The position numbers and the translations under genes are program-made. Shown here one piece after another: positions 38,566-60,727 of a stretch of DNA of 64,000 nt (within the stretch, counting starts at the first letter, position 1; the number at the start of each line of letters is the position of its first letter). The DNA comes from a virus. The notes beneath the pieces were generated by a model. That model did not search any database and was not told the DNA's origin. It saw only the letters and a list, made by a program, of their open reading frames with translations. The stretch is from positions 64,001 to 128,000 of the IMG/VR virus record IMGVR_UViG_3300020416_000001; one strand, 5' to 3'.

Positions 38566-38727
38566 ATGACCCATTACATTGTCGGGTATATGGACCATTC
38601 TCATAACCATCAAGAAATTGGTGTGACAGCAAAAGATTCTTTCGAAGCAAGAGATATTGCAGTAGAAGATGTACCATACATTCACGAACACCCGAACAGC
38701 ATCGATCATATTGGTAAAGTAGAATGA
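38566..38727 (+). CDS. 53-aa His-rich hypothetical protein (absent from the ORF track)
   Basis: GGAG RBS; MTHYIVGYMDHSHNHQEI...EDVPYIHEHPNSIDHI. Confidence 0.7.
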   Translation: MTHYIVGYMDHSHNHQEIGVTAKDSFEARDIAVEDVPYIHEHPNSIDHIGKVE

Positions 38728-38888
38728 ACGGCAGATTAAACAAAGTTGCAATGACCGATAGGTTGTTGAAACTGAAAAGGGAACTCGATTACAAATGTGA
38801 AATCGGGGAGAAAGGAGAGTGGGAATGTAGAGGTGCCAACGATTATCTAAACAAAGTGTTTGACGTTTTAGATGAGTTCTGGCAGTGA
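38724..38888 (+). CDS. 54-aa hypothetical protein (absent from the ORF track)
   Basis: ATGA overlap; MNGRLNKVAMTDRLLKLK...LNKVFDVLDEFWQ. Confidence 0.7.
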   Translation: MNGRLNKVAMTDRLLKLKRELDYKCEIGEKGEWECRGANDYLNKVFDVLDEFWQ

Positions 38889-38895
38889 CTAAATA
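38888..38895 (+). promoter_or_regulatory. late promoter
   Basis: ACTAAATA before gp3. Confidence 0.7.
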
Positions 38896-38924
38896 GAGAC
38901 AGGCGAACCCCACTAAAATAGATA

Positions 38925-39485
38925 ATGTCTTTCGAAACGCAAATTAGCAACAGGAATTTCCTTTCTCCAGGTGGGTTTCGCTTTACCTTAGCAAAATATC
39001 CTAAGGTAGCATACTTTGCACAGATGGCAAACATTCCGAACCTCTCGTTAAGTTTGCTTGAACAACCAACTCCATACAGAGACACCTATCTAGAAGGTGT
39101 TATCGACTATGGTCGTTTCAATCTCCAGTTTCTTGTAGACGAGAATATGGAGAACTATTTGATTATGCATAACTGGATGCGTGGTCTTGGTGTGCCTGAA
39201 AGATTCGAGGAGCGTCAACAGTTCATCGAAGCAAATCAGACTAACACCGCCAAGTCTCTAGGACAGGATTTGATTTTCGCAGACGGTACACTCGTTGTAT
39301 TGAACTCTAACTTCCAACCCTTGTATAATGTAGTCTTCAAAAATTTGAAACCAGTGGAACTTAGCACACTAGAGTTCGATGGAACGCTTAGTGACCAAGA
39401 GTATTTCCAAGCAATCGTATCATTTGATTACCTATCATATGAGATACAATCTGTATCTGGTGATAGACAGAAAAACTTAAAGTAA
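38925..39485 (+). CDS. gp3: tail completion protein gp3
   Basis: NRNFLSP.GF, FLVDENMENY..IHNW-like motif, FKNLKPVELS. Confidence 0.85.
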   Translation: MSFETQISNRNFLSPGGFRFTLAKYPKVAYFAQMANIPNLSLSLLEQPTPYRDTYLEGVIDYGRFNLQFLVDENMENYLIMHNWMRGLGVPERFEERQQFIEANQTNTAKSLGQDLIFADGTLVVLNSNFQPLYNVVFKNLKPVELSTLEFDGTLSDQEYFQAIVSFDYLSYEIQSVSGDRQKNLK

Positions 39486-56125: not shown

Positions 56126-56501
56126 TTACTTAAACAGTATCAATCATACTAAAGAAGATCTTCGTGAACGTGGAGACGACTGGATGAAGAAGTATCCTTC
56201 TTACATCGTCAACAAATGTTTGAGTGGATTCAAAGAGACAGTGCTATATGCTAATGCTGTCAATGAGTTCCACCAACTTGATAATGACCTTCAATATTCA
56301 TTTTATCTAAATAGTCTGAGAAAGAAACGCCGTTTCTCTCCCTGGCAACGTAAGGACAAGGTAGAACATCTTGACCTCATCAAAAAATACTTTAAGTATT
56401 CAGATGAAAAAGCACGGGATGCACTTAGAATTCTGACCAACGATCAGATTGAATTGATTAAATTAAAAATGAATACTGGAGGTAAAACCAATGGCAGGTG
56501 A
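56091..56501 (+). CDS. gp62: clamp loader small subunit gp62
   Basis: YLNSIN, YIVNKCLS, RKKRRFSPW. Confidence 0.9.
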   Translation: MSKHHKDYPLTDYLNSINHTKEDLRERGDDWMKKYPSYIVNKCLSGFKETVLYANAVNEFHQLDNDLQYSFYLNSLRKKRRFSPWQRKDKVEHLDLIKKYFKYSDEKARDALRILTNDQIELIKLKMNTGGKTNGR

Positions 56502-56913
56502 GATCGAGATTTCTTGGTCCCCCGATATGATGGTAGAGGTTAGTCTCAAGCAACCTGATGACTTTCTCAAAGTCAGAGAGACTCTTACTAGGATCGGTGT
56601 AGCATCGAGAAAAGAAAAGAAATTATTTCAGAGTTGTCATATTCTTCATAAGAAGGGCAAGTATTATATTGTCCACTTCAAGGAGTTGTTTGCGTTGGAT
56701 GGAAAGCACGCGAACCTAACTTCTAATGACGTAGAACGTCGTAACAGAATTACAAAACTCCTATCAGATTGGGGACTTGTAGGTATTGTTGATGAGGAGA
56801 TCGGTGAACTTGCACCGTTGAATCAGATCAAAGTTATTTCATATAAGGATAAGGGTGAGTGGATCCTAGAATCGAAGTATAATATAGGTAAGAAACGTAC
56901 AGTCTCAGAATAG
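56491..56913 (+). CDS. regA: translational repressor RegA
   Basis: DDFLKVRETLTRIGVAS, QSCHILHK, YYIVHFKELFALDG. Confidence 0.97.
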   Translation: MAGEIEISWSPDMMVEVSLKQPDDFLKVRETLTRIGVASRKEKKLFQSCHILHKKGKYYIVHFKELFALDGKHANLTSNDVERRNRITKLLSDWGLVGIVDEEIGELAPLNQIKVISYKDKGEWILESKYNIGKKRTVSE

Positions 56914-56920
56914 ATAAATA
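56913..56920 (+). promoter_or_regulatory. late promoter
   Basis: GATAAATA before 56943. Confidence 0.7.
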
Positions 56921-56942
56921 GGTCAGCAATCCATTCAGCACT

Positions 56943-57383
56943 ATGTCTGAGGAGAAGAAAACACCTCCTAAATCTGAAGAAAAACCAAAAGGTTTCTTCG
57001 GTCGTTTGAAGGAAGCATCTGAGGACAAAGAGGAACAACTGGCGATTCTCAGTACATTCGTGAGACTCGGCATTCTCATTTGGAGCGGAGGGATCCTGAC
57101 GTTAGCGTACGTTGATCTTCCCAAAGCACTAAATTTTCCCGAACAAGACCTCGATCCAACTTTCATAGCTAGCGTTTTCACGGGCGTTTTAGCTACATTT
57201 GGCGTCCAGACTGCCAAGAAGAATGGTAATGGAAATACCAATGGTAGTGTAGGTATTACAAAGGCAGATATGGAGAGACTCATCGAAGCAGCAGCACAAA
57301 GTGCACCTGCTCAAGTCATCCGTGTTGAACAAGCACCTTTGAAAATTACTACCGATGATAACCCTAAAAAGTATGATCTCTAA
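56943..57383 (+). CDS. two-TM membrane protein
   Basis: LAILSTFVRLGILIWSGGILTLAY and PTFIASVFTGVLATFGV, with charged termini. Confidence 0.75.
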   Translation: MSEEKKTPPKSEEKPKGFFGRLKEASEDKEEQLAILSTFVRLGILIWSGGILTLAYVDLPKALNFPEQDLDPTFIASVFTGVLATFGVQTAKKNGNGNTNGSVGITKADMERLIEAAAQSAPAQVIRVEQAPLKITTDDNPKKYDL

Positions 57384-57385
57384 TT

Positions 57386-57616
57386 ATGCAAAAAATTATT
57401 AACGTTCTGGTTGTATTCAACTTCCTATTCGCAGGTACTGTTACAGGTACTTTCGTATATACGTGGTTCAATCGTGAAACACTCGCTGAACAATCAAGAG
57501 AAAGACTTGCATCATTTGTTGCGGAAGCAGTCGGCAGTATGGTCCCAGGTCTTGTAGATAAAGGACTTCCTGATGTTACTGGTCCTGCAATTCCACCTAT
57601 CGGTCTACCAAAATGA
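57386..57616 (+). CDS. single-TM protein with Pro-rich tail
   Basis: MQKIINVLVVFNFLFAGTVTGTFVY. Confidence 0.7.
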   Translation: MQKIINVLVVFNFLFAGTVTGTFVYTWFNRETLAEQSRERLASFVAEAVGSMVPGLVDKGLPDVTGPAIPPIGLPK

Positions 57617-58149
57617 AATGGTTTTACGCTACTGCAGGTGTACTCTTAGGTGTATCACACCTTGGGATGATCGGCATCATAGCGAATAAACAAACCTTTC
57701 CACATCTCAACCCACCTGTAGGTCCTTATAGTTCCTACAGTGCTGAGGTTGGTAGAGAAGGATATAAGATCAATTATCAAGGAAATGATCCAAAGGTAAT
57801 GTCGGAAGACATTTACGTTAATAAGAGTGGTTTCTTTGGTAATAAATCTATCGTCACAAAATCTCACGAGTACACTATGGATGGCATCAGGCATCTAGGA
57901 GGTGAAGGCGTGGGAAAGTTGACTGCCAAAAAACTAGAATGTATCAAGGCGGAAGGTGGTGGAGAACAAACGGGCGCTGTGATCGGCGCTAGTGTAGGAA
58001 CCGCTGCTGCCCCTGCTCTATCAGGCATTCCATTTATAGGTCCAGTCCTAGCAGGAGGCATTGCACTCTTTGCAGGTAACAAGGGAGCAAATGTAGGTGG
58101 AGAAATCGCTGTCGCAATGGCAGACTGTGAAGAAGAATTAATTGACTGA
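57613..58149 (+). CDS. membrane protein with glycine zipper
   Basis: N-terminal TM; GAVIGASVG...IPFIGPVLAGG...GANVGG flanked by two Cys. Confidence 0.75.
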   Translation: MKWFYATAGVLLGVSHLGMIGIIANKQTFPHLNPPVGPYSSYSAEVGREGYKINYQGNDPKVMSEDIYVNKSGFFGNKSIVTKSHEYTMDGIRHLGGEGVGKLTAKKLECIKAEGGGEQTGAVIGASVGTAAAPALSGIPFIGPVLAGGIALFAGNKGANVGGEIAVAMADCEEELID

Positions 58150-58152
58150 TGA

Positions 58153-58935
58153 ATGGAAATCCCAGAGATCGGAACGAACGATATTAATATTCGTTCCTTG
58201 AACATACCTGAGATCCGATCTTATAGTTGGATCGAATCTATACCAAAAGCGATACCGATCTACCCACCTGTCACTCAAGAGTTAGGTACACCGATCATCA
58301 ATATCCCAGGTTGTGTAGAAGCACACGAACTTGATGATGGTAAGAATGAAAACCTAAAGTCAGATGACCCGAAGGGAGCGAAGGTGTATTGTGATGCTGC
58401 ATTGCCTTCGTTCTCCCCTATCGAGTACAACAAAGAGAAATTACAGTTCCAGTTGCCTGCTGTAGAGGCACCTAAGTTTGAGAATGAATCACCAGACCTT
58501 TCTGTACCAGAGACAAAGGTACCAAAGGTTGACTCACCTGAGTGTCCTACAAGGGCACAGGTATTAAAAAACCCCATAGGAAAGATCCTAGAGGGTAATA
58601 AAAAGATTGTTGCTTACGAGTTGGTAGGCAAAGAATGTATTGAAGTTACAGAGAAATTAAATATCACTGATCAAATTATTCAAAACATCCCTTCCCCTGG
58701 TTTGATAGTTACTACAGGTTCTATTGCTGCTGTTGCTGCCACCTCTGCGTTGCTCGCAAAACCGCTTGCCGATCTTCTTCTGAAAATTGTGAAACCTGCT
58801 GTGAAGAAGACGATTGGGAAGATTGGATCTCTGTTTGGACGGGTTCCGAAACGCCAATCTCAAAAGGACCGCCAAGATCTGCAGCGTTTGAGGACACGGG
58901 CACTTCGAGAGTTGAAGAGGATGAAGAAGAGATAG
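58153..58935 (+). CDS. Pro-rich protein with C-terminal TM and basic tail
   Basis: Two Cys pairs; LIVTTGSIAAVAATSALLA; K/R-rich end. Confidence 0.7.
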   Translation: MEIPEIGTNDINIRSLNIPEIRSYSWIESIPKAIPIYPPVTQELGTPIINIPGCVEAHELDDGKNENLKSDDPKGAKVYCDAALPSFSPIEYNKEKLQFQLPAVEAPKFENESPDLSVPETKVPKVDSPECPTRAQVLKNPIGKILEGNKKIVAYELVGKECIEVTEKLNITDQIIQNIPSPGLIVTTGSIAAVAATSALLAKPLADLLLKIVKPAVKKTIGKIGSLFGRVPKRQSQKDRQDLQRLRTRALRELKRMKKR

Positions 58936-59770
58936 GTTTAGAATTACTATGCACGTGTGGTTTGATATAGTTCACACCCTGTACCACAACGTCTGCACAT
59001 ACACTATAGTATGGTGACTTTGGATGGAAGGTGATTCCCGCTTTCATAAGTTCACCACAGTTTTTTAATCTCGCGATCTCAAAGTCTAATCTCTTGTTTG
59101 CAGTCAACTGACGTTGCATATTTAGTTGGGTTTGGACTGCCTCTTTACATTGTTGTTGTGCCTTCTTATCGAGAGGTATAGACCACGTAGCAGATACACC
59201 GATGGATAGGTTATATGTATCTTTCTGTCCCGTTCTTACAGGAATTTGATATAACACTGACCCAGGATTGTCAGGTGCACCGTCTCCTATTTGATTACCA
59301 TCGTCATCTGTTGTACCTGTTAGGTCACGCATATCATATACATTATCAAACCATTCACCTTCAAATGGTTTCTGTCCAGATGCACTACCTGTTGCATATG
59401 GTGTGATGTTAAGTGTACTACCTTGACACTGAATACCACCACCGTAAGTGTTAGTTATATACGGACCTTGTAAAACTTGTATTGCCTGATTAGTCACGCT
59501 ACCACTGGAGTTTGCGATGGGCGCTGCAGTTGCAGATACACCACCAACAGTCTCAGCATTGACTACTTGAGGGGATAAGATTGATAAGGCAAGTGCCCCT
59601 ATTGTTGGAAGATTGAGGTTGTGTCTGTGACGCTTGTAACCTCTGTTACCCTCTGGATTATTGTTTGATTTTGAAGTCCAGGTCCAGAGTAAGTTTCTGT
59701 AAATTGAAATGCGGATCCCACATTGTTCTGGGTCCAGTTTGGTTTGTTGTTGATGTTTAATCCTGTCCAT
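58721..59770 (-). CDS. secreted/outer-membrane-like protein (start uncertain)
   Basis: Signal-like IGALALSILSPQVVNA|ET; SIGVSATWSIPLD followed by a long helix; four Cys in the mature part. Confidence 0.65.
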   Translation of the reverse strand: MDRIKHQQQTKLDPEQCGIRISIYRNLLWTWTSKSNNNPEGNRGYKRHRHNLNLPTIGALALSILSPQVVNAETVGGVSATAAPIANSSGSVTNQAIQVLQGPYITNTYGGGIQCQGSTLNITPYATGSASGQKPFEGEWFDNVYDMRDLTGTTDDDGNQIGDGAPDNPGSVLYQIPVRTGQKDTYNLSIGVSATWSIPLDKKAQQQCKEAVQTQLNMQRQLTANKRLDFEIARLKNCGELMKAGITFHPKSPYYSVCADVVVQGVNYIKPHVHSNSKPISSSSSSTLEVPVSSNAADLGGPFEIGVSEPVQTEIQSSQSSSSQQVSQFSEEDRQAVLRATQRWQQQQQ

Positions 59771-60060
59771 TTTGAAGTCACGCCATCAATAGTTTGAGAT
59801 TGTTCACTTACACCTGGTGTCATAGATGCACCATCGTGTTTTACGTTTGTACCAGAAACGGAATACACCCAACCCGTAGCATAGTCCATCGAATTTATCG
59901 TCTCAGTTACCTTGGAAGTCGTTTCCGTGTGGCTCGTCATACTTCCCTGAGTGAAATTTGGCACCACGGGCACTGCGAGAACAGGTGCAGTAGAATTGAC
60001 TACGAGTGCACCTGTTGCAATACACGTTACGATCTTTCCAAAAGGGATGTTCACGTACAT
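59599..60060 (-). CDS. secreted beta-rich protein
   Basis: GGAG RBS; signal peptide ending APVLA|VPVVPNF; Thr/Ser-rich. Confidence 0.75.
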   Translation of the reverse strand: MYVNIPFGKIVTCIATGALVVNSTAPVLAVPVVPNFTQGSMTSHTETTSKVTETINSMDYATGWVYSVSGTNVKHDGASMTPGVSEQSQTIDGVTSKWTGLNINNKPNWTQNNVGSAFQFTETYSGPGLQNQTIIQRVTEVTSVTDTTSIFQQ

Positions 60061-60066
60061 TCTCCA

Positions 60067-60567
60067 CTAGTCGATTCGGATCTCGGATACAAATTGACCG
60101 ACAGCACTGGTTCCTGCCCCACCTGCTGTTAAACCGATAGTAGAACTGGAATCGATAGTTCCTGCCAAACTGCCCGCACTGCCTGCAGCAGTTGAGGTCT
60201 GGTTACTGAAGTTACTTACAGCACCGACAGTAGGAGCACTACCAGATATTGCATCCCCTTGCAAGAATGACTGAGTAAAACTCCAAGATTCGCCTGCAGT
60301 CGCTTGGGTCGCTGTCAATGCAGGGATCGATCCAACGCCTGAGGAAATGGTAAGTGCACCAATAGAAGAGGTTGCTGAACCACCACTGGGTGTATATTGT
60401 GTGGTGACATTGTTGCCACTTACACTATACGACGTACCTATGCGTTGTACATTTGTTGCTGCTGCGTCCACATTGAGTTGGACACTGCTGCTTAATTTAT
60501 GTGTTACATCGGCATATGCAGGTGCCGTCATCAAAACCATACCAAAGAGCAATGCTACTCTTTTCAT
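60067..60567 (-). CDS. secreted beta-rich protein
   Basis: Classical signal peptide MKRVALLFGMVLMTAPAYA|D. Confidence 0.8.
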   Translation of the reverse strand: MKRVALLFGMVLMTAPAYADVTHKLSSSVQLNVDAAATNVQRIGTSYSVSGNNVTTQYTPSGGSATSSIGALTISSGVGSIPALTATQATAGESWSFTQSFLQGDAISGSAPTVGAVSNFSNQTSTAAGSAGSLAGTIDSSSTIGLTAGGAGTSAVGQFVSEIRID

Positions 60568-60598
60568 TCTTCTAGAAATACAAAGTTATAACTAAGCC

Positions 60599-60606
60599 TA
60601 TTTAGC
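60599..60606 (-). promoter_or_regulatory. late promoter for the minus-strand operon
   Basis: Minus strand reads GCTAAATA, 31 nt before the ATG at 60567. Confidence 0.65.
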
Positions 60607-60665: not shown

Positions 60666-60673
60666 TATAAATA
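60666..60673 (+). promoter_or_regulatory. late promoter of hsp20
   Basis: Exact TATAAATA. Confidence 0.85.
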
Positions 60674-60677
60674 ACTT

Positions 60678-60727
60678 TGTCGCCTTCGGGGACATTAAAC
60701 CAAATCTCGCTCTTAAGGAGAATTATG
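60678..60727 (+). promoter_or_regulatory. structured 5' UTR, ROSE-like RNA thermometer candidate
   Basis: cUUCGg hairpin, then a UCUC-G-CU/AG-GAGA hairpin covering the Shine-Dalgarno. Confidence 0.65.

Follow-up and report, generated by a model that had tools for sequence, protein, structure and literature searches.

A widespread seven-gene late cassette of membrane and exported proteins in marine cyanophages, a candidate for a non-canonical lysis system

The stretch of DNA analyzed here (the window, 64,000 nucleotides (nt) in length) covers bases 64001-128000 of the 171,756-bp IMG/VR record IMGVR_UViG_3300020416_000001, a T4-like cyanomyovirus genome estimated to be 94% complete. Between regA (56491-56913; Pfam Translat_reg, 156 bits) and hsp20, seven open reading frames (ORFs) were found at the places where an earlier note on the same sequence had put them, and they are called A to G here. 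Genes A, B, C, and D form an operon on the plus strand, and G, F, and E form an operon that converges on it from the minus strand. As judged from sequence, the cassette is well supported as late and envelope-directed, and among candidates for the host-cell exit of these phages it currently ranks first. Its features, with protein lengths in amino acids (aa) and models rated by the predicted local distance difference test (pLDDT), are the following:

56913-56920, plus strand: late-promoter-like motif GATAAATA, 22 nt 5' of the ATG of gene A
56943-57383, plus strand: gene A, 146 aa; Pfam DUF6450 (PF20048) with 123.9 bits over aa 27-94; phrog_2714, E-value 8e-68
57386-57616, plus strand: gene B, 76 aa; phrog_568, E-value 2e-17; described from hydropathy and alignment
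57613-58149, plus strand: gene C, 178 aa; phrog_605, E-value 3e-57; described from hydropathy
58153-58935, plus strand: gene D, 260 aa; phrog_570, E-value 3e-95; described from alignment and hydropathy
58721-59770, minus strand: gene E, 349 aa; phrog_848, E-value 2e-126; described from alignments, a model (pLDDT 57), and a conserved start codon
59599-59770, minus strand: same-strand overlap of F and E, 172 nt, with the ATG of E inside F
59599-60060, minus strand: gene F, 153 aa; Pfam DUF6322 (PF19847) with 147.7 bits over aa 53-153; model with pLDDT 79
60067-60567, minus strand: gene G, 166 aa; phrog_564, E-value 1e-58; weak DUF6322 match of 13.8 bits; aligns with F
60599-60606, minus strand: late-promoter-like motif GCTAAATA, 31 nt 5' of the ATG of gene G

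All seven products match large PHROG families of unknown function with E-values between 1e-17 and 1e-126 and are therefore regarded as real genes. At Pfam gathering cut-offs of 25 bits for DUF6450 and 30.6 bits for DUF6322, A is a member of the former family and F of the latter, and G scores below the cut-off. Spacing within A-D is tight, with gaps of 2 nt or overlaps of 4 nt. The other minus-strand ORFs of at least 100 aa in the window either lie under a longer plus-strand ORF or match no family, so that G-F-E is the sole supported unit on this strand. Enzyme, holin, spanin, and defence families were not matched by any of the seven proteins in Pfam, NCBIfam, or PADLOC, and the NCBIfam and PADLOC scans of all seven yielded noise only. 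These results agree with several statements of the earlier note. Its plus-strand operon of four membrane proteins between regA and hsp20 is upheld by the ORFs, by hydropathy, and by the PHROG families alike; its only credible minus-strand operon is indeed the one unit with family support among the minus-strand ORFs of at least 100 aa; and the enzyme motifs that it had reported as lacking were not found with Pfam, NCBIfam, or PADLOC either. The note had also named the mapping of the products to unrelated known functions as an outcome that would speak against its proposal, and none of them maps to a known function.

Both operons have a TATAAATA-like box shortly upstream of their first gene, as expected of a T4-type late unit. 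Nearly all of 50 distinct related loci have the motif NNTAAATA 29-41 nt upstream of the start codon of G, and most of 48 have it some 30 nt upstream of that of A. By their letters, the NNTAAATA boxes are variants of the T4 late promoter TATAAATA, and they would be read by a phage gp55-type late sigma factor and the late transcription apparatus. The late promoters that had been proposed at 56913 and 60606-60599 thus correspond to motifs at exactly these places, with a position kept across dozens of loci. A simple terminator scan gave no convincing terminator-like site between the two operons, and the convergent A-D and G-F-E transcripts should therefore overlap. The neighboring hsp20, which diverges from G, carries a perfect TATAAATA late box at window positions 60666-60673, and its likely start is the ATG at 60725 and not the TTG at 60677 taken by the ORF finder.

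Membrane topology was assigned with Kyte-Doolittle hydropathy windows. Protein A begins with a charged N-terminus, followed by a conserved hydrophobic hairpin of two helices (motifs WSG..LT and DPTFIASVF) and a hydrophilic C-terminal tail. Its length ranges from 71 to 146 aa across phages, and the aligned homologues of podoviruses and siphoviruses measure only 71-103 aa. The general features of holins, namely small size, at least one transmembrane domain, a charged hydrophilic end, and a late-type motif, were all found in A, although these features are not specific. No match to a described holin family was obtained for A, B, C, or D in Pfam, NCBIfam, or PHROGs, and A is, from its predicted architecture, holin-like in size and topology only.

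Protein B has an N-terminal transmembrane segment and about 45 further residues with a short helix and a proline-rich end. Its homologues are labelled "plasmid stability" in phrog_568, in Syn9 (gp162), in several GenBank records, and in papers; searches against stability, partition, and toxin-antitoxin families in Pfam, NCBIfam, and PADLOC gave nothing significant, and the name is a label only. Protein C combines an N-terminal transmembrane segment or signal with two cysteines and a glycine-rich, zipper-like hydrophobic segment at its C-terminus. Protein D has neither a signal peptide nor an N-terminal hydrophobic segment. Its N-terminal domain carries invariant PGC...CD motifs and is followed by a proline-rich spacer, a C-terminal transmembrane segment at about aa 183-202, and a strongly basic tail of 50 aa, and the protein contains four cysteines in total. 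The D profile found no match among PDB chain sequences at E-values up to 1.

The three minus-strand products carry the signal peptides that had been ascribed to them, N-terminal in F and G and internal in E, at about aa 55-72. Those of F and G are ordinary and end in AxA-type sites, and a lone cysteine in the signal region of F is missing from its homologues. The mature domain of G is rich in serine, threonine, glycine, and alanine. By alignment, F and G are distant paralogues that share the motifs YSVSG.NV and G..F.F(T/S)(E/Q). Curli and Fap were considered as relatives of such paralogous exported subunits, and no similarity to them was found. Homologues of G are named "OMP1 protein" in the GenBank records of S-SSM4, S-RIM8, and ACG-2014. 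Protein E most likely starts with a basic extension of about 55 aa, after which its signal-like segment ends in an AxA-type site (VNA|E). In the alignments, the first 37 residues of mature E are almost invariant and four cysteines are fully so, and its C-terminal tail is variable, of low complexity, and encoded antisense to the 3' end of D. The paired cysteines reported in several of the proteins were accordingly recovered in C (two), D (four), and mature E (four), but mature F and G contain none.

The model of F (pLDDT 79) is a sheet built mainly of two strands of about 24 residues. No significant neighbor was found for it among PDB folds, as the best Foldseek E-value was 0.019 with TM-scores of 0.15-0.28 and the best VIA Z-score was 3.6. 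The top rows, which are at chance level, contain pore-state anthrax, iota, and lysenin toxins, the tail knobs of phi29 and P68, FliF rings, and spore-appendage fibres. Judging from this model, F may work as an oligomer, which is a lead and nothing more. The AlphaFold model of E (pLDDT 57) is poor; its invariant N-terminus is disordered and is followed by four strands and a helix of 42 residues. PDB searches with it returned generic long-helix and coiled-coil matches only, and the model is too poor for a fold test. The E profile had no match among PDB chain sequences at E-values up to 1. It found 613 clusters at E-values of at most 0.001 among 1.84 billion representatives, and no functional lead emerged among the 150 strongest matches listed, in a library that carries no names. 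ESM Atlas look-ups of E and G returned their own viral clusters only, and the clusters nearest G all carry DUF6322. A complex prediction of E (residues 1-205) with F scored 0.00, which counts neither way.

The start of E is itself a conserved trait. In correction of the earlier note, E was found to start not with its signal peptide but 166-172 nt inside F. Its sole canonical start is the ATG at 59770, 172 nt inside F, and it is composed of the wobble A of one F codon and the TG of an invariant tryptophan codon of F. This wobble A is kept in all 30 non-redundant F genes, though the residue encoded by the codon differs (S, T, K, Q, or R). All 77 loci have an overlap of either 166 or 172 nt, F never ends in a TGA that would create a start at the junction, and in 45 of 55 distinct sequences the first 66 codons of E contain no further ATG, GTG, or TTG. 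The same layout with the ATG in the tryptophan codon occurs in the T7-like phages KBS-P-1A and S-TIP37, despite an identity of 26-30% in E. Because the start is conserved within F and other canonical starts are mostly absent, E most likely carries the basic extension of about 55 residues predicted ahead of its signal peptide. In form, this extension resembles the extended signal peptides of autotransporters. In P-SSP7, the stretch matching the E profile before the annotated gene 045 (38591-38932) lies in a frame with two in-frame TGA codons, and E may be N-terminally shortened or differently organized in this phage. At their 3' ends, D and E overlap antisense by 215 nt in the window (58721-58935) and by 0-239 nt across loci, with gaps in two loci. 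The length of this overlap varies because the low-complexity tail of E varies in length.

A total of 80 IMG/VR loci were collected by their match to E, and the order G-F-E|D-(C)-B-A recurs among them. The 27 loci with enough flank for gene counts all have G, F, E, and D; 25 of them also have A, 24 have B, and 17 have C, the least constant member. The co-occurrence as a block that the earlier note wanted checked by gene neighborhood is thereby supported. In a phage collection, E matched 431 records and D 408, while hsp20 matched about 470 cyanophage records; roughly 10% of cyanomyoviruses, S-PM2 among them, lack E. The layout of Syn9 is identical (gp161-167, between regA gp160 and hsp20 gp168), and P-SSM2 has the same convergent layout in PSSM2_236-242, which are T4-GC 231-237. 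The cassette was also found in S-RSM4, where it adjoins psbA, hli, and petF. In some loci, insertions have displaced A, B, and C. Part of the cassette has been described before, and its existence is therefore not new. Sullivan et al. 2010 (PMC3037559) reported a conserved cluster of hypothetical proteins (T4-GCs 218, 219, 234, 235, and 237) with a "plasmid stability" gene in all cyanomyoviruses then studied except S-PM2, found it at a differing place in 6 of 15 genomes, and suggested that it is mobile. This is the same cassette, given there as five genes plus B, while topology, promoters, podovirus and siphovirus versions, the overlap of F and E, host copies, and function are absent from that account.

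Phages of other morphotypes carry reduced versions. T7-like cyanopodoviruses (KBS-P-1A, S-TIP37, and P-SSP7) have a collinear set of a D-like gene, an A-like gene, F, and E between the tail-fibre and terminase genes. In P-SSP7 the set consists of genes 042-045, the first three of which are annotated as "1 TM", "2 TM", and "signal peptide". The identity of the podovirus F is given by an hhalign probability of 98.7%. The podovirus D-like protein is proline-rich, has a basic tail, and matches D in its C-terminal hydrophobic segment; hhalign aligned it to D on one motif with a probability of 87%. In the siphovirus P-HS2, B and D face a convergent group made up of E, F, G, and A, with identities of 30-40%. 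Its cassette closes the late module and lies about 1 kb downstream of a tail-fibre-like gene, past three small genes of unknown function, and is followed by recombination genes. C was not found in the podovirus or siphovirus versions. From the gene content across morphotypes, the core is D-A-F-E, to which G and B are added in siphoviruses and myoviruses and C in myoviruses only. The distribution follows the host group and not the phage lineage, as the cassette occurs in myoviruses, podoviruses, and siphoviruses of Synechococcus and Prochlorococcus. A homologue of F is listed for S-TIM5, of a myovirus lineage that is not T4-like (orthologue lists in the supplement of PMC7238727). In S-TIP37, an ORF of 84 aa, longer than the annotated gp49, overlaps the 3' end of E and just passes it, with an N-terminal transmembrane segment and a coiled-coil-like remainder of i-spanin-like form.

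A scan of prokaryote genomes with the E profile yielded 11 loci, none of which looks truly cellular. Nine of them carry the cassette at phage-like identity, and in four of these nine the contig, at about 190 kb, is as large as a phage genome; several loci lie in unrelated metagenome-assembled genomes (MAGs). Stretches matching E, most of them with the whole cassette, occurred in genomes labelled Lewinella, Formosa, Euryarchaeota, Gammaproteobacteria, and Sphingobacteriales. A 188-kb contig from the isolate Nonlabens xiamenensis 1Q3 also matched, as did contigs of about 190 kb from single-amplified genomes of Prochlorococcus and from a Synechococcus MAG. These stretches look like artefacts of binning or contamination, or like infected cells.

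Of 395 genomes of the Cyanobiaceae-level family, 5 matched DUF6322, and three of these five are incomplete assemblies with a phage-like match; in a sample of the phylum, 1 genome out of 401 matched. The two genuine copies come from Cyanobiaceae genomes of 4.1 and 3.6 Mb and lie on contigs of 85 and 120 kb. Their G-F-E genes show 33-38% identity, with ndhG, ndhI, and ndhA some 4-5 kb away. Their G homologues end in ...LTAF, which resembles the beta-signal of outer-membrane proteins. One host E homologue reached 16.4 bits (E-value 0.008) against the outer membrane efflux family of TolC (PF02321), below the cut-off of 22 bits, and the E of the window did not match this family. In one host copy, a convergent D-like ORF follows E and is proline-rich, with a C-terminal hydrophobic segment and a basic tail. 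The D profile misses this ORF, and hhalign aligned the hydrophobic segment only, with a probability of 7%; that it is homologous to D is guessed from where it lies and how it is built. No homologue of A was found in either host genome, and as both copies sit at contig ends, genes like A-C could lie beyond.

The earlier note had proposed an envelope assembly with a role in lysis, in exclusion, or as a filament. This proposal is supported in part, as regards a late block directed at the envelope, by the linkage of the genes, the late motifs, and the predicted membrane and exported products. Among the roles, lysis is favored by position, while superinfection exclusion fits the late timing poorly. 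A non-canonical system for lysis or for breaching the outer membrane is accordingly the reading preferred here, though it is held tentatively and falls somewhat short of probable. It is favored because of the position in podoviruses and siphoviruses, the holin-like first gene, and a set of membrane and exported proteins without an enzyme, a make-up typical of lysis cassettes. The interval between genes 17 and 19 of T7 holds the holin 17.5 and the spanins 18.5 and 18.7, and siphovirus lysis genes commonly follow the tail genes. The cassette occupies a like position, after tail-fibre genes and, in T7-like cyanophages, before or around terminase, while in P-HS2 it stands at the end of the tail module. 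It likewise encodes small membrane and exported proteins with late expression signals. It differs from the T7 and siphovirus lysis genes in lacking sequence or profile similarity to them, a lipoprotein o-spanin, a normal-sized type II coiled-coil i-spanin, and a linked endolysin. With class II holins (two transmembrane segments, S21 68), A shares the hairpin, the small size of its podovirus and siphovirus forms, the charged ends, and the first place in a late operon, but it has no Pfam or PHROG holin match, and its myovirus forms bear long extra tails. The four invariant cysteines of mature E fit an oxidizing compartment. No match to Pfam Phage_lysozyme, Phage_holin_T, or Peptidase_M23 was found in the 94%-complete genome, and about 20 Prochlorococcus and Synechococcus phages have been listed as spanin-less (Kongari et al. 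2018).

Under the lysis reading, both convergent operons would be transcribed late in infection. The plus-strand operon would supply four proteins of the cytoplasmic membrane, with A as a hairpin, B and C with N-terminal anchors, and D with a C-terminal anchor and a cationic tail. The minus-strand operon would supply three Sec-exported proteins, namely the paralogues F and G with a long beta hairpin, and E with a beta region, a long helix, and disulfide bonds. A could then play a holin-like role in the inner membrane, E, F, and G could weaken or perforate the outer layers that are otherwise left to canonical spanins, and B, C, and D might tether or trigger them. The periplasmic or outer-membrane location, the assembly of the parts, and the role in lysis are what we infer from these predictions. 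In a stronger form, the cassette would be a new lysis machinery specific to picocyanobacterial phages, in which A is a holin of a new family, F/G and E assemble into a beta oligomer that takes the place of spanins in rupturing the outer membrane, and the genes have passed among myoviruses, podoviruses, and siphoviruses and occasionally into hosts; put this way, the proposal is doubtful.

Several observations weigh against a role in lysis. No endolysin linked to the cassette was found in any phage examined, and A matches no annotated holin family. Neither known spanin architecture was found. The o-spanin of the two-component type (Rz/Rz1) carries a lipobox cysteine that E, F, and G lack. As for the i-spanin form, B has the N-terminal transmembrane domain but only about 45 further residues, and the long helix lies in E, which is exported and not anchored. 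The unimolecular form (T1 gp11) is not represented either, as D has a C-terminal transmembrane domain but no signal peptide, N-terminal hydrophobic segment, lipobox, or upstream in-frame start. What likeness there is to T1 gp11 and Rz/Rz1 consists of the C-terminal transmembrane domain and proline-rich spacer of D and the coiled-coil-capable helix and conserved cysteines of E. A protein with a C-terminal transmembrane domain together with an outer-membrane protein has been speculated to act as a spanin (Kongari et al. 2018). Neither the E profile nor DUF6322 matched the complete genome of S-PM2, a lytic cyanomyovirus, whereas the positive controls Syn9 and P-SSP7 scored, and the cassette is therefore not universally required. 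The two Cyanobiaceae chromosomes that keep G-F-E near ndh genes, one of them with a D-like ORF, are odd for lysis genes and suggest a cellular surface function. Cyanobacterial signal peptides may, moreover, also lead to the thylakoid lumen.

The same observations bear on the rival explanations. The exported proteins could remodel the cell surface late in infection by coating or blocking the outer membrane or its receptors, which would spare progeny from infected cells and debris or exclude superinfection. Three exported serine-, threonine-, and glycine-rich beta proteins without an enzyme would suit this purpose, as would a distribution that tracks the host group across phage types, the dispensability implied by S-PM2, which lacks E and F, and the cellular homologues, which suggest a surface protein that cells can tolerate. 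Exclusion systems, however, are usually early, and the motifs found here are late-type; surface remodelling would account neither for the four inner-membrane proteins nor for why the genes follow the tail fibres in podoviruses and siphoviruses, and PADLOC gave no match, so that this explanation is considered unlikely. Another possibility is a secreted fibre or oligomeric beta-barrel that serves a purpose other than lysis, with F and G as subunits, E as a partner in the outer membrane or periplasm, A-D as an export or anchoring platform, and gene transfer with cyanobacteria. F and G would in this case correspond to the major-minor subunit pairs of curli or Fap, and the strands of about 24 residues in the F model, its long-hairpin neighbors, the ...LTAF end of the host G, and the chromosomal copies in two Cyanobiaceae genomes all point in this direction. 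The long-hairpin beta oligomers in question (aerolysin and lysenin stems, phi29 and P68 knobs, FliF, and Ena fibres) compare with the two long strands of F only at chance level (TM-scores of 0.15-0.28, Z of at most 3.6), and F is known here as a single-chain model. As no structural match was significant (Foldseek E-value above 0.01, VIA Z at most 3.6), an ATPase, usher, or secretin is missing, and host copies are rare, such a fibre or barrel is regarded as quite unlikely.

A third set of arguments concerns the destination of the proteins. It is established that cyanobacterial Sec signal peptides do not tell the periplasm from the lumen, and the membrane proteins could be placed in thylakoids with E, F, and G in the lumen, where they would alter the photosynthetic membranes late in infection. 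The cassette lies among host-type genes in several cyanophages, as in S-RSM4, and the host copies lie near ndh genes. No similarity to any photosynthesis protein was found, though, and the place after the tail-fibre genes in podoviruses and siphoviruses better fits late genes of the lysis type, which makes a thylakoid module improbable. That the cassette promotes its own movement or maintenance through the "plasmid stability protein" B is hardly credible. Its variable position in 6 of 15 genomes, for which mobility was proposed (Sullivan et al. 2010, PMC3037559), and the occasional displacement of A, B, and C by insertions agree with such a role, but B is a predicted membrane protein of 76 aa without a partition or stability match in Pfam or NCBIfam, its name is a PHROG and GenBank label only, and mobility does not account for the conserved exported proteins.

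Already known are the cluster itself, published in 2010, and no study of its function was found in the literature searched. New here are the anatomy of the seven genes, the D-A-F-E core over three morphotypes in the lysis slot, the overlapping start of E, the paralogy of F and G, and the rare host copies. Phages of Prochlorococcus and Synechococcus turn over a large share of the ocean's primary producers, and no holin or spanin has been recognized in them. Being late-type, envelope-directed, nearly universal, and shared across morphotypes, the cassette therefore offers a concrete lysis target of four to seven genes (Syn9 gp161-167, P-SSP7 042-045). Should it serve a purpose other than lysis, few unexplained gene sets of marine viromes would still be as widespread, and it also illustrates clearly how the start of an overlapping gene is conserved and how genes are exchanged with hosts.

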